64,000 bases of DNA from Halorussus marinus (lineage in GTDB: Archaea > Halobacteriota > Halobacteria > Halobacteriales > Haladaptataceae), in the NCBI RefSeq assembly GCF_004765795.1, contig NZ_SBIV01000002.1, forward strand, positions 434,001 through 498,000, in the 5' to 3' direction. The translations under genes were made by a program, and so were the position numbers. The notes beneath the pieces are model-generated. The model was not told where the DNA came from and ran no database searches. It was given only the letters and a program-made list of their open reading frames with translations. Positions 29,265 to 60,586 of this stretch are shown here, one piece after another. The first letter of the stretch is position 1; every line of letters begins with the position of its first letter.

Positions 29265-31493
29265 CTACCGACGCCCGCCCACGGTCACCAGCCAGAGCAC
29301 GCCGAGTCCGACGCCGTACGCCAGCGAGATCGGGATCGCGAGCAGGAACATCGTGTAGAGGCTGTCTGGAGTCACGAGGCCGGCGACCGCGAACACCGCG
29401 ATGGTGACCTCGCGCCACCGATCGAGCATCGCGTCGAACGGGACGATGTCCCCCCAGTGGAACAGCCACATCGTCAGGGGCACGTCGGCGAGCAGTCCGA
29501 TGCCGGCGGTGGTGAAGAACACGAGCCAGAAGAAGTTGCTGACCCGGTAAGAGATCACCATCTCGGCCCGAACCGCGTCGGCGACCAGCCACGAGATGAC
29601 GCTCGGCGCGACGAACAGGTAGCCAAGCGCGCTCCCCGCGAGCAGTCCGACCCCGATAGTGGCCGCCCAGACGCCGAACACCCGGCGGTCGCCCGACGCC
29701 AGCCCGCGCTCTTTCATCGCGGGCCACGCCCAGTACAGCAGGACGGGCACGACCGCGACCCCCGCCAACAGCGTCGATATCTTCACCTCGAAGATGAGCG
29801 CCTCGACCGGGTGGAGCACCACGATGTCGAGGATTTCGCCGCTCGACCCGGGCTCGGGGCGGACGTCCGCCGGGACCCGTTGGAGGAAGTCCTGGCGGAT
29901 GATACCGATCCCGCCCATGTAGAGGGCCGTGAACACCGCGGCGAGCACGGCCATGAAGATGCCGACGAGCCAGAACACCTTCGAGGTGAGGCTGTCGAGG
30001 ATGAACCGGATGTCGTAGTACCATCCGCCGATGTCCTCCTCGGTGGTCTCGTCTTCGGTGAACGCGTCGGCCATCCCCGCGGCGGTGCTCTGGACCGGAT
30101 TGGCCGAGTCCTCGGGGTCGTCAGGGGACGACTCCCCGGCGTCGCCGTCGGCGACCTCGGCGTCCCCGGTCGCGGCCGCCGCGGCTTCGTCGTCGGCCTC
30201 CTCGTCGTCGGGGTTGAGTTCGTCGTAGCGGTCGAGGATCGCCTGGGCCTTCTCGGCCTCGTCTTCGTCCATCGCCTGCCGTGCGTAGCCGACCGCGTCC
30301 TCCTCGCTCATCTCCTCGAACACCTCCGGCGGAGCGGCCCGGACCGCGCCCGCGTCGAGCGGGCCGAGGTCGATGTCGGCGGGCGAGCCGCCGCGAGCGG
30401 GCCTCGGACCCGTGTCGACTTCGTCGAGCGCCCGGAAGAAGTAGTAGAGCACCGCGAGCGCGAGCGTCACGACCGCGAGCGCGCCGGCGACCGCCAGCAC
30501 CGACTGGGTCCGCGGGAGCCCGACGACCGACTCGACCGGCGGGAGCTGGTAGTCGGCCGGGAGCGAGTCGTTGACCGTCTCGCGGCCGCCGCCGGTCAGC
30601 GCCATCCGGACGCCGAGGAAGACGAGGACGGGCGCGCCGAGGATCCGGATCCAGTCGTCGCGGATCACGCCGGCGAGGCTGAGCTGTTCGCTCCCGCGCT
30701 TGAGCGTCACCACGGCCTTGGTGAGATAGAGGCTAAAGACGTACAGCAGGATGAGCGGCGTCGCCCACATCAGCTGGGTGAACGGGTCCGGAGGCGAGGC
30801 GAGGGCGCCGAACAGGAAGATGCCGAGGATCGCGTAGCGCCACTTGTCCCGGAACGTCTCGTAGGGGACGATCCCCGTGTAGCCGAGCCCGCTCATCGCG
30901 AGCGGGAGCTCGGCGGCGAGGCCGAACGACAGCGAGAGAAAGAGGATGAACTCGGTCCACTTCACGATCGAGTAGTTGGTCTGGAACCCCGCGGACGTGG
31001 CGTTGTCCGCGAGAAACTGGAACATCAGCGGGAAGAAGACCAGATAGCCGTAGAGGATGCCGCCGAAAAAGAGCGCGAACGCGAGGACCGCGAGCGTCGC
31101 GATCTTCCACCGGGCGATCGGGGACTGGGGGTGCCACGACTTGTCCCGGAACTCGTCGCGGGCGTAGTACAGCAACATCGGCACCGAAAACAGGATCCCG
31201 ACGACGAGGCCGATCTTCGCCTGCAGGAGGATGACGTCGAACGGCGTCACCGCGACGACGTTGATGCTCTCGGCGAGGTCCGGCGACATCTGGGCGGTCG
31301 TGACCTCCTTGAGATAGGGCCAGCCGGCGCCCCGGATCGCGTAGAAGCTCGCCAGAAAGCCCAGCAGGAACACCACGAACACCTTCCGGAGGTGGTCCTG
31401 GGCGGTCGAGAGCATCGCACCGACGGTCTCGCGCCCGCTGTTGACCGCGCGGGCGGTGTCCTCGTCGACGATGCTACTTCCAGTTCCAGACAT
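29265..31493 (-). CDS. tatC: Twin-arginine translocase TatC, tandem-domain form (TatCt)
   Basis: Two TatC-like units (TPFDVILLQAKIG...PPDPFTQ and HPVEALIFEVK...TPDSLYTM) joined by an acidic linker. Confidence 0.93.
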   Translation of the reverse strand: MSGTGSSIVDEDTARAVNSGRETVGAMLSTAQDHLRKVFVVFLLGFLASFYAIRGAGWPYLKEVTTAQMSPDLAESINVVAVTPFDVILLQAKIGLVVGILFSVPMLLYYARDEFRDKSWHPQSPIARWKIATLAVLAFALFFGGILYGYLVFFPLMFQFLADNATSAGFQTNYSIVKWTEFILFLSLSFGLAAELPLAMSGLGYTGIVPYETFRDKWRYAILGIFLFGALASPPDPFTQLMWATPLILLYVFSLYLTKAVVTLKRGSEQLSLAGVIRDDWIRILGAPVLVFLGVRMALTGGGRETVNDSLPADYQLPPVESVVGLPRTQSVLAVAGALAVVTLALAVLYYFFRALDEVDTGPRPARGGSPADIDLGPLDAGAVRAAPPEVFEEMSEEDAVGYARQAMDEDEAEKAQAILDRYDELNPDDEEADDEAAAAATGDAEVADGDAGESSPDDPEDSANPVQSTAAGMADAFTEDETTEEDIGGWYYDIRFILDSLTSKVFWLVGIFMAVLAAVFTALYMGGIGIIRQDFLQRVPADVRPEPGSSGEILDIVVLHPVEALIFEVKISTLLAGVAVVPVLLYWAWPAMKERGLASGDRRVFGVWAATIGVGLLAGSALGYLFVAPSVISWLVADAVRAEMVISYRVSNFFWLVFFTTAGIGLLADVPLTMWLFHWGDIVPFDAMLDRWREVTIAVFAVAGLVTPDSLYTMFLLAIPISLAYGVGLGVLWLVTVGGRR

Positions 31494-31721
31494 TCCTTGG
31501 ACGTGGTAGCCGTGTCTCGGTTATCAATCTTCTTGTTAAACCGGAGAATCGACCGTCACGCGCCCGCGCTCGCCCGGCGACGAGGTCGGTTCGATCTCGT
31601 CGCGAAGGAGGTATCAATCCCGGTCGAGTCGCGCGGGGCCGGCGCTTGGACCCCTCGTGGCGCCCGGTTTTCGGGGCGCTCGCAAAAGGCCTATAATAGA
31701 GCCCGCGCTTAGACCGACTGA

Positions 31722-32561
31722 ATGGCTGACGAACCGGAGGCGACCGCGAGCAACATTTCCCCAGCGACGCCCGAGGACGGCTCGGAGTCGCTGGGGGACC
31801 GCGACCCTACCGGCCCGACAGCGCCCGAAGAGCCCCTCGAAGACGAGGAGATGCCGCTCGCCGACCACATCGAGGAGATGGTCAAGCGGCTCGCGGTCGT
31901 CGTCGTCGTCGCCGGCGGGATCACCGCCATCGCGCTTCCGTTCGCCGAGGAGGTCATCAACTTCCTCTGGAACGACATCATCTCGATCGCGGAGGTCGGC
32001 GATCAGGGCCGCCCCCGGATCTACCACCCGCTCGCGCTGGTGTTGACCGAACTCAAGGTCGCCAGCCTCGCGGGCATCATCGTGGCGCTCCCGATCTTCG
32101 TCTACCAGACGTACCTTTTCATGCGACCCGGCCTCTACCCCCACGAGCGGCGCTACTACCTCGCGGCGGTGCCGACGAGCCTCGTGTTGGCGTTCGTCGG
32201 CGTCAGCTTCGCCCACTTTGCCGTGTTGCCCGCGATCTTTACCTACTTCATCTACTACACCGAGGGCCCGACCGACCTGCTCGCGTTCGGGCTGACCAAG
32301 ACGTTCAACCTCATCCTGATGCTGATGGGGTATCTGGCGGTGGTGTTCCAGATCCCGCTGTTTATCATGCTCGCCATCATGATGGGGCTGACCACCCGAC
32401 GGTGGCTCGCCGACCGGCGGTTGCTGTTTTGGGGGGCGTTCCTCGGCGTCTCGTTCCTGTTCACCCCCGACCCGACCGGGATGGCGCCGATCCTCACCAC
32501 CGCGACGATGATCCTGCTGTTCGAGGGCACGCTGTTGCTCCTGAAGTGGACCGGTCGGTGA
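31722..32561 (+). CDS. tatC: Twin-arginine translocase TatC, single-domain form (TatCo)
   Basis: EMPLADHIEEM, FMRPGLYPHER, FQIP and TPDPTG motifs. Confidence 0.95.
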   Translation: MADEPEATASNISPATPEDGSESLGDRDPTGPTAPEEPLEDEEMPLADHIEEMVKRLAVVVVVAGGITAIALPFAEEVINFLWNDIISIAEVGDQGRPRIYHPLALVLTELKVASLAGIIVALPIFVYQTYLFMRPGLYPHERRYYLAAVPTSLVLAFVGVSFAHFAVLPAIFTYFIYYTEGPTDLLAFGLTKTFNLILMLMGYLAVVFQIPLFIMLAIMMGLTTRRWLADRRLLFWGAFLGVSFLFTPDPTGMAPILTTATMILLFEGTLLLLKWTGR

Positions 32562-32637
32562 GGAGTCCCGTCCGGTCAACGACAAATTTCACGAGCGTAA
32601 TCGGCATATAACTAAGGCGGGCGAATCCGTAGGTGTT

Positions 32638-32742
32638 CGTAGCGTTCGTGCCTGCCACTTAGCTCGCGTGCCAGCAGCTACAATACGCAGTTCGCGTGCC
32701 AGCAAACTGCCACCCTGGGTGCGAACGCCCATACAACTTTCT
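32638..32742 (+). ncRNA. Putative structured small RNA with twin identical-loop hairpins
   Basis: TATA (TATAAC 32607-32612); closing stem 32642-32653/32717-32728; hairpins 32660-32680 and 32687-32710 share the loop CGCGTGCCAGC; 3' CTTTCT; no ATG on the plus strand; ends approximate. Confidence 0.6.
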
Positions 32743-32775
32743 CGGGTCCCGAGCCGACAGCGACCGCGCCGGGCG

Positions 32776-33663
32776 CTACTCGCCGGTCGGGTACTCCGCC
32801 GCGAACACGTCCTCGACCACCGGCTCGTCCGCCCCGTCGGCGTCGGGGTCGGCCTCGCGTTCGGGGCTGACGCTCCCCGTCTGGTAGCCGTGGAGGTCGA
32901 GAGTGACGTGTTCGAAGCCGATCTCGGTCAGCCGGTCGCGGACCGCCGCCGCGAAGTCGGGGTCGAGCGCGACGTCGAGTTCGTCGCGACCGACCTCGAT
33001 GCGGGCGAGTCCGTCGTGGTCGCGCACTCGAAACTGGTCGAACCCCCAGTCCCGGAGCACCGCCTCGGCGCGCTCGACCCGGGTGAGTTTCTCCTCGGTG
33101 ACCTCGAGGCCGGTGGGGATCCGCGAGGAGAGACACGCCATCGAGGGCTTGTCCGCGACCGAGAGATCGTACTCGTCGGCGAGCTCGCGGACCTCGTCTT
33201 TGGTGACTCCGTGGGCGAGCAACGGCGAGTAGGCGTCGAGCTCCTCGACCGCCTGGAGTCCCGGGCGGTGGCCGCCGTCGGCGTCGCTGGCGTTGGTGCC
33301 GTCACAGACCACCGGGATGTCGAGTCGCTCGGCGGTCTCGAACATCTTGCCGAGCCGCATCGTCCGGCAGTGGTAACACCGGTCGCCGTCGTTCTCGACG
33401 AAGTCGGGGTCCTCGAGCTCCGAGAAGGAGACGATCTCGTGGCGGATGCCGATCTCCTCGGCGACCCGGGTGGCGTCGTCCAGTTCGGCGGCCGGCAGGG
33501 TCTCGCTCTTGGCGGTACACGCCACGGCGTCCTCGCCCAGCGCATCGCGGGCCAGCGCCGCGACCACGCTCGAATCGACGCCGCCCGAGAACGCGACCAC
33601 GACGCCCTCCCGGTCGGCGAGGTCGTCTCTGATCGCCTGCGCTTTCGCCTCGACTGAAGCCAT
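32776..33663 (-). CDS. larE: LarE ATP-dependent sulfur transferase (nickel-pincer cofactor synthesis)
   Basis: AFSGGVDSS PP-loop, RCYHC, DGTNASD, RPG, ACLSSRIP, RVRDH. Confidence 0.93.
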   Translation of the reverse strand: MASVEAKAQAIRDDLADREGVVVAFSGGVDSSVVAALARDALGEDAVACTAKSETLPAAELDDATRVAEEIGIRHEIVSFSELEDPDFVENDGDRCYHCRTMRLGKMFETAERLDIPVVCDGTNASDADGGHRPGLQAVEELDAYSPLLAHGVTKDEVRELADEYDLSVADKPSMACLSSRIPTGLEVTEEKLTRVERAEAVLRDWGFDQFRVRDHDGLARIEVGRDELDVALDPDFAAAVRDRLTEIGFEHVTLDLHGYQTGSVSPEREADPDADGADEPVVEDVFAAEYPTGE

Positions 33664-33801
33664 GTCCCGAGCTTTGGGACGGACGGGAGAAAAGCGCGTT
33701 GGACGCCACGTCGGCGGGGTCGGCGAACGCGGCCCGTCCCGGGCGTCGACGCCCCGCCGACCCGCGAACGTTTTTAAACCAGCGGTCGGAACTACGCCCC
33801 G

Positions 33802-60166: not shown

Positions 60167-60586
60167 ATGAGAGACAAATTAGCCGGCGGTAGCCCGATCG
60201 CGGACGGCGACCCGACGGCGACGACCCGACGGCCGGACGCCGACACGCCCCCGGTGTCACAGGACAACGTCTTCGACGCGCTGGCGTCTCGCCGGGGGAG
60301 GTACGTACTCGCCTGCGTGCGCGAGGCCGACGCGGCCGTCGACATCGAAGACGTCGTCGAGTGCGTCGCGACCTGGGAGACCGGCAAGCCGATCGATCTG
60401 GTCTCCGAGGAGCACCGCGAGCGCGTGGCCACCTCGCTGACACACACCCAACTGCCGAAGCTGTCGATGATGGGGATGGTGGAGTACGACGAGCGCGAAG
60501 GCGTGGTTCGGCGGGGGCCACACGCCGAGCAGGCCGACGCGTACCTCGACGTCGCTATCGAGCGCGACGGCAACGTCGATCTGTAA
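60167..60586 (+). CDS. Haloarchaeal winged-helix protein (DUF7344-like)
   Basis: FDALASRRGRYVL...SLTHTQLPKL...VEYD. Confidence 0.8.
   Translation: MRDKLAGGSPIADGDPTATTRRPDADTPPVSQDNVFDALASRRGRYVLACVREADAAVDIEDVVECVATWETGKPIDLVSEEHRERVATSLTHTQLPKLSMMGMVEYDEREGVVRRGPHAEQADAYLDVAIERDGNVDL

Follow-up and report, generated by a model that had tools for sequence, protein, structure and literature searches.

A putative structured RNA gene of Halorussus marinus with hairpin loops antisense to mRNA starts in haloarchaea

In the 64,000-nt stretch of the Halorussus marinus genome analysed here (the window), the gap between the convergent genes tatC and larE raises the question of what a dedicated TATA-like element followed by a short foldable sequence might serve for. 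A sequence-only reading had proposed an RNA of about 100 nt, which either sequesters a protein in a CsrB-like manner or mimics rRNA. We refer to this small RNA as RNA-A and list its parts and neighbours in Table 1. In the following, f1 is the family of H. marinus, presumably the Haladaptataceae, f13 the Natrialbaceae and f6 a third family; g-numbers denote genera and G000 is the H. marinus genome.

Table 1. Parts of the RNA-A locus and neighbouring genes (window positions)
Feature	Position	Strand	Remark
Promoter region	32577..32616	+	Conserved columns in 30 f1 loci
CAAY...TTTC block, conserved	32577-32590	+	Part of the RNA-A promoter region
CGTAATCGG	32596	+	Element of the RNA-A promoter region
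TATA-like TATAACTAAG	32607-32616	+	Precedes a spacer that is fixed in length and poorly conserved
RNA-A, approximately 100-105 nt	32640..32743	+	Both ends predicted
Closing stem, 5' strand	32642..32653	+	Predicted fold; degenerate copy of the loop unit
Hairpin 1	32660..32680	+	Predicted fold
Hairpin 1 seed UCGCGUGCCAGC	32664-32675	+	Antisense to GC(A)UGGCACGCGA
Hairpin 2	32687..32710	+	Predicted fold; the part common to the forms of other families
Hairpin 2 seed UUCGCGUGCCAGCAA	32691-32705	+	Antisense to UUGC(A)UGGCACGCGA(A)
Closing stem, 3' strand	32717..32728	+	Predicted fold
Pyrimidine tract (CTTTCT)	32737..32742	+	Likely terminator; TTTC(T) kept across f1 loci
tatC	31722..32561	+	PF00902; 5' neighbour of RNA-A in f1 only
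larE	32776..33663	-	TIGR00268 above cut-off; convergent 3' neighbour

RNA-A and its conservation within its own family

The elements described before are all in place. The TATA-like element stands between the two convergent genes and is conserved in 33/33 f1 loci, and the two hairpins carry an identical 12-nt loop and are followed by the CTTTCT tract. The core (32642-32730) folds as a three-way junction with a z score of -2.71, one of 200 shuffles being equally good, and the closing stem comprises 12 bp with three G-U pairs, as had been read from the sequence. The whole stretch 32600-32745 (146 nt) folds no better than its shuffles on either strand (z approximately 0). The 12-nt loop sequence has exactly two copies in the window, both within RNA-A, which is single-copy in the H. 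marinus genome.

A DNA search recovered RNA-A in 33 of 34 other f1 genomes and in none of 26 genomes outside f1. The two-loop form was also sought by a pattern scan of genome contigs, in which the matches listed were mostly chance and bacterial; the haloarchaea among them were Halorussus, Haladaptatus, Halomicrococcus and one further haloarchaeon. Viral contigs contained no exact match to the 21-mer of hairpin 2. In 33/33 f1 loci, ATAACTAA is found 31-33 nt upstream of the TAGCG of RNA-A, across a variable spacer. The earlier reading had made its case depend on conserved loops, and both are retained in all 33 loci together with the last CTGCCAC, at a loop-to-loop spacing of 25-29 nt. Its four TGCCA motifs (starting at 32653, 32669, 32697 and 32708) are all present, but the fourth overlaps the hairpin-2 stem and the first is retained in just 18 of the 33 loci. 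Judged from these sequences, the conserved unit is the loop of 10-12 nt and not the fourfold UGCCA.

There is no two-sided stem change within the f1 RNA or within the f13 RNA; three stem pairs are variable in f1, with one-sided changes that all pass through G-U on the plus strand, in agreement with the claim that the G-U pairs favour a plus-strand RNA. A single two-sided change in alignment A4 was set aside because A4 includes L299 and L300, which, like the other weak model matches L173, L174, L175 and L176, look like chance. Indels of 1-3 nt separate the conserved blocks of RNA-A in the f1 loci, so that no ORF is conserved. Furthermore, the Rfam 15 covariance models gave no match at the gathering threshold over RNA-A (window 31500-33800), nor did Rfam 15 match the RNA copies at four f13 and three g44 loci. 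The locus thus combines the marks of a stand-alone gene, namely a conserved TATA at fixed distance and a U-tract without a conserved ORF. These features support the reading of RNA-A as a structured non-coding RNA gene without an Rfam family. Transcription would run on the plus strand under a promoter of its own, with a 5' end predicted near 32636-32641 from the TATA position and a 3' end predicted at the U-tract.

Regarding the neighbours, larE is no part of the RNA-A system. Upstream, tatC is found in 30/30 f1 loci, and the Natrialbaceae form is located elsewhere; this adjacency is confined to f1 and may be incidental, though many targets are Tat substrates. The window contains two divergent tatC genes (29265-31493, minus strand; 31722-32561, plus strand), one of them with two TatC domains, and such a divergent pair is an ordinary arrangement in haloarchaea. 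Promoter-like stretches resembling the unusual TATAACWA box of RNA-A, with the same upstream GTA, occur in G000 at C1:251260, C1:348293 and C9:50263, possibly pointing to a shared TBP/TFB or activator. Outside the window, the genome also carries two tRNA gene arrays of similar gene order (C7 29732-35885 with 14 calls; C11 from 67665 with at least 16).

Predicted target sites at mRNA starts

The invariant loop sequence UCGCGUGCCA-GC is antisense to mRNA starts of the type GC-AUG-GCA-CGC-GA, encoding Met-Ala-Arg-Asp/Glu (MAR), and H. marinus has gene starts, reading (UGC)AUG GCA CGC GA, of which the loop motif is the reverse complement. Among 3267 crudely called H. marinus starts, the best seed duplex is formed with a MAR-type target (-24.3 versus a mean of -11.5 kcal/mol); two more expected targets rank 7th and 13th, and ranks 2-6 are occupied by unrelated genes. 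Co-folding of RNA-A with seven candidate H. marinus starts gains 12.7-19.8 kcal/mol, a figure given without a control set.

The 14-mer TGCATGGCACGCGA occurs in 27/30 f1 genomes, 21/33 f13 genomes and 2/137 other genomes, both of the latter belonging to g44, an RNA-bearing genus, compared to matches of the reversed 14-mer in 6/201 genomes. A small number of the f1 matches correspond to the antisense strand of RNA-B, a second paralogue described below. From 101 listed sites, 41 were fetched and read; 39 are ORF starts and the remaining two are RNA-B antisense. The 39 starts comprise 29 with a twin-arginine (RR) Tat motif, three of a 90-aa membrane protein and seven short ORFs. Large targets are beta-helix/lyase-like, with PF13229 above the cut-off in 2 of 17 scanned and weaker matches in others (also in the Atlas), and targets are often situated in glycosyltransferase-rich clusters. 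At 30 of the 41 sites a TATA-like box lies 29-34 nt 5' of the ATG. Given the usual archaeal spacing between TATA and transcription start, the leader should therefore be a few nt long and the target mRNAs would be nearly leaderless. A second GCACGCG site follows 15-21 nt downstream in 12/19 f1 targets and in 0/19 f13 targets, which matches the two RNA loops versus one in these families.

The H. marinus targets are located on other contigs or 24 kb off, and the f13 targets approximately 2 kb or more away from the RNA. A cis-encoded antisense RNA is ruled out, since there is no overlap with a target on the opposite strand; likewise, a general Tat regulator is ruled out by the presence of the site in only 2 of 70 RR-motif ORFs.

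Some further observations were made on target promoters and starts. Three H. marinus target promoters (C9 ~104044, C9 ~105792 and C1 ~393078) show an AT-rich box plus CATTGA unit, twice in tandem, and Natrialbaceae targets have TTACC in the corresponding place; these units are possibly the site of a regulator. Short ORFs of 34-79 aa whose promoters and start sites are of the target type (L320, L323, L317, L319, L325 and G000 C9:105792) possibly represent small proteins, decayed duplicates or sponges. At L384 (G474), a gene has two UGGCACGCGAA sites, one just 5' of the ATG and one in codons 7-11, and is possibly a target of another layout.

Related RNA forms and their covariation with the targets

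A weak model match led to a one-loop form in f13, with a predicted length of about 75 nt. This form shares the loop with RNA-A and differs in its closing stem; it has a TATA of its own and a U-tract. Of 63 pattern sites read, 38 are not the RNA. In 25/25 loci the f13 RNA is situated directly 3' of a DUF7344 gene, and a search with the f13 model yields a single copy in each of 120 genomes out of 140 in f13. Natrialbaceae plasmid records carry it unannotated, for example H. turkmenica NC_013747, between a DUF7344 gene and a glycosyltransferase gene. In f6, forms with the same loop on other stems follow a DUF7344 gene in the genera g108 and g105 as well as on a plasmid of g44; in addition, 5/5 g44 genomes carry three copies in tandem, each with a separate promoter. 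The remaining f6 sites read are chance matches inside genes, or unexplained. The triplet copies (L348-L352) measure approximately 110 nt, each with a seed hairpin, a GCCAUGCA segment and a terminator hairpin, and the triplet adjoins two genes that we take to be rhodanese-like.

The second paralogue, RNA-B, was found in G000 on the minus strand of C10 (~32660-32728) and has relatives in all five f1 genomes asked, from three genera (L315, L327, L496-L500). It forms one long hairpin with a loop fully complementary across the AUG and has a conserved GTCAGACMTAAC-type promoter. RNA-B rules out the rule that the A of AUG is never paired, and a 21-aa ORF starting with MARDEVG is now read as its antisense. 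In most forms the base opposite the A of ATG is absent or mismatched. The invariant columns over ten hand-picked representatives read AG.UCGCGUGCCA, with GUGCCAAC, GUGCCAAG or GUGCCAUG in related forms.

No copy of the RNA turned up near eight H. marinus homologues of DUF7344, nor behind the G423 orthologue. G000 has a strongly expanded set of DUF7344-like winged-helix genes (28 matches, including one at window ~60233-60580), and a pair of predicted targets on C9 has one such gene at a distance of ~2-4 kb. Apparently intergenic stretches with the seed also occur in family f2 (L241, L252), one able to form a hairpin; they could be further RNA forms or chance.

Presence of the RNA and of its target site go together. 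Within the 140 f13 genomes, a 13-mer target site was detected in 104 of the 120 RNA-positive and in none of the 20 RNA-negative genomes (six genera, 16 of the 20 falling into two of them); the genomes are kin and not independent, therefore these counts, and likewise the p value given below, overstate the case. The exact 13-mer is lacking in 16 of the 120 RNA-positive genomes, ATGGCACGCGA is absent from G180, which has three RNA copies in a triplet, and genus g25 has the ATGGCACGCGAACTG start, with no RNA among the 30 of 50 seed matches read.

Homologues of the targets were compared in 60 regions from protein-search matches, with starts chosen by a protein-level rule and not by the motif. The MAR starts in f1/f13 homologues have GCA as second codon in 37/37 cases, compared to 97/380 genome-wide in H. 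marinus; the third codon is CGC in 35 and CGU in two, and the CGU variant still pairs with the seed, as G-U. Nucleotide conservation of these starts ends at +11, i.e. at the end of the seed. In genomes without detected RNA the site is present in 0/17 assignable homologue starts. Three RNA-less f13 genomes keep homologues, with the site in 0/10 starts, and the start of one such orthologue with 70% identity reads ATG ACA CGC; two genomes asked from RNA-less f13 genera have no target homologues. However, a sister clade of the target homologues is equally invariant at codon 2 (GCG in 14/14), therefore inheritance alone could fix this codon.

Complementarity is not restricted to the seed. After removal of the seed-pairing bases, the RNA segment 5' of the seed was paired with the targets, and pairing was strongest with the targets of the own lineage. 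The values compared to shuffled sequences (in brackets) were -23.3 (-16.5) for f13, -29.3 (-18.5) for g108, -19.1 (-14.9) for g105 and -22.6 (-17.2) for RNA-B; pairing of RNA-A was weak, -16.7 (-13.3). Little or no such extension was seen for the g44 forms, and it is absent for the g44 triplet. In 17 f13 genomes, same-genome pairs of RNA and target averaged -26.6 versus -22.8 kcal/mol for swapped pairs (permutation p 5e-5, to be read with the kinship of the genomes in mind). Taken together, a conserved seed complementary to distant mRNAs, and co-occurrence and covariation of RNA and target among genomes that are kin and not independent, are the features of a trans-acting sRNA.

Proposed mechanism, alternatives and known systems

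On these grounds the RNA is probably a trans-acting antisense sRNA that covers the start codon of nearly leaderless mRNAs. Its own promoter would drive plus-strand transcription, and the seed UCGCGUGCCA-GC would be displayed in the predicted hairpin loops. The seed is complementary to nt +2 to +11 of mRNAs starting with AUG GCA CGC GA and would pair there in vivo, as well as with 2-4 nt 5' of the AUG, leaving the A of AUG bulged. In f1, the second loop could take the second GCACGCG site downstream; in the other families, a single loop would be extended by the lineage-specific 5' segment. The duplex over the 5'-terminal AUG and the first codons would block translation initiation, possibly followed by decay. 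Because RNA and targets change together across lineages, the RNA most likely switches its target proteins off via this start-codon cover.

The same pairing could have another outcome, in which the RNA caps the 5' ends of its targets, shielding them against 5' decay or storing the mRNAs. It would cover what is probably the very 5' end of nearly leaderless mRNAs, and the f13 RNA sits in the target cluster behind the DUF7344 gene; moreover, sRNA154 of Methanosarcina mazei is described as stabilising some targets through two loops (PMC5867862). But a duplex of 10-35 bp over the AUG should keep the ribosome off, and coverage of start regions by M. mazei sRNA162 and sRNA41 is reported to cause repression (PMC6560208). 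We consider stabilisation a rather improbable outcome, and blocked initiation most likely, because the duplex covers the AUG as in these two sRNAs.

Very improbable is a purely DNA-level explanation, in which the motif would be bound by a transcription factor (the winged-helix protein DUF7344, for instance) or the RNA locus would be an inverted piece left over from a target 5' end and kept alike by gene conversion. The DUF7344 gene directly 5' of the RNA in all f13 loci read and also in g105, g108 and on the g44 plasmid would fit such a site, and copying could yield long similarity between RNA and target. However, the motif is sense in the targets, whereas five forms have it in antisense behind a promoter of their own; it invariably occupies a hairpin loop, on differing stems, the stem variation is of the G-U type on the strand of the promoter, in most forms no matching base faces the A of ATG, and RNA-A of f1 is not adjacent to DUF7344.

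The CsrB-like sponge with multiple UGCCA sites, suggested by the earlier reading and in line with the two identical loops of RNA-A and the three tandem copies in g44, appears even less credible: a sponge would copy the mRNA motif, whereas the loops are its reverse complement, most families have a single loop, the first UGCCA is gone in 15/33 f1 loci, and the covariation of RNA and target complementarity would be left unexplained. Its other proposal, a mimic of 16S helix 18 (530 loop), is barely conceivable: GTGCCAGC is common to the loop and 16S, presumably as a likeness to the bacterial 515 sequence, but the 16S of H. marinus itself reads GTGCCAGCC and not GTGCCAGCA, therefore just 8 nt are shared, and the related RNA forms deviate as given above. 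Mimicry of a tRNA anticodon loop (UGCCA of tRNA-Gly GCC) was dropped, the loop having 6 nt and the seed being longer.

Start-codon cover by an antisense seed has parallels in known systems. Bacterial sRNAs such as RybB, MicA, RsaE and RNAIII use a short conserved seed, partly in a loop, and those of the RybB/MicA type repress mRNAs of exported proteins, partly inside the first codons; they are Hfq-dependent or anti-SD, their targets are leadered and the seed site does not fix the N-termini of the targets. The RNA described here likewise has a short conserved seed for a set of exported-protein mRNAs, but its targets are probably nearly leaderless and the seed site coincides with fixed N-terminal residues.

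Among archaea, M. mazei sRNA162 and sRNA41 are reported to act in trans, to repress translation and to occlude both the start codon and the ribosome binding site; several targets are described for sRNA41 (PMC6560208, PMC5867862, PMC4152357). Our RNA resembles them as an archaeal trans-acting sRNA, although start-codon occlusion, described for theirs, is here a prediction, and the targets differ, with long leaders and SD motifs there and the AUG plus first codons of nearly leaderless mRNAs here; no sequence relation to the two was found (no Rfam match). With sRNA154 it shares two loops as pairing regions for several mRNAs, but the loops of sRNA154 reportedly differ from each other and mainly stabilise, whereas those of RNA-A are identical and mirror tandem target sites (PMC5867862). 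Haloferax volcanii sRNA132 and SHOxi are also intergenic base-pairing sRNAs of haloarchaea, SHOxi with its seed in a stem-loop (PMC8583180); both are reported to be confined to Haloferax (PMC6560208, PMC8583180), whereas the present RNA occurs in three families and would pair at the start codon, and the sites predicted for sRNA132 lie in ORFs or 3'-UTRs and not at 5' ends (PMC6560208). These sources state that 72% of H. volcanii transcripts are leaderless (PMC6560208) and that the majority of archaeal sRNAs are not common even to one genus (PMC4152357). None of the papers listed in a literature search describes the RNA, and none came up with the seed strings; an entry without function may exist in the sRNA catalogues of subscription journals or supplements. 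Hence the RNA, as judged from sequence and predicted targets, would act like known trans-acting sRNAs, belongs to no catalogued family and is apparently undescribed.

A wider picture has, in our view, about an even chance of being right. It sees an archaeal start-codon-seed system with several families and paralogues, in which the RNA has fixed the first codons, and with them the Met-Ala-Arg-Asp/Glu N-terminus, of secreted surface-glycan proteins that form a regulon; the RNA would co-evolve base by base with these targets and be the repressing arm of a circuit with the DUF7344 winged-helix regulator. The finding bears on the question of how leaderless archaeal mRNAs can be acted upon by sRNAs, and the span of three families, the named targets and a nucleotide-exact pairing model backed by gain, loss and covariation make this question directly testable. 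Protein N-termini would here be shaped by an RNA regulator, which points to a coordinated, uncharacterised regulon of secreted beta-helix proteins.
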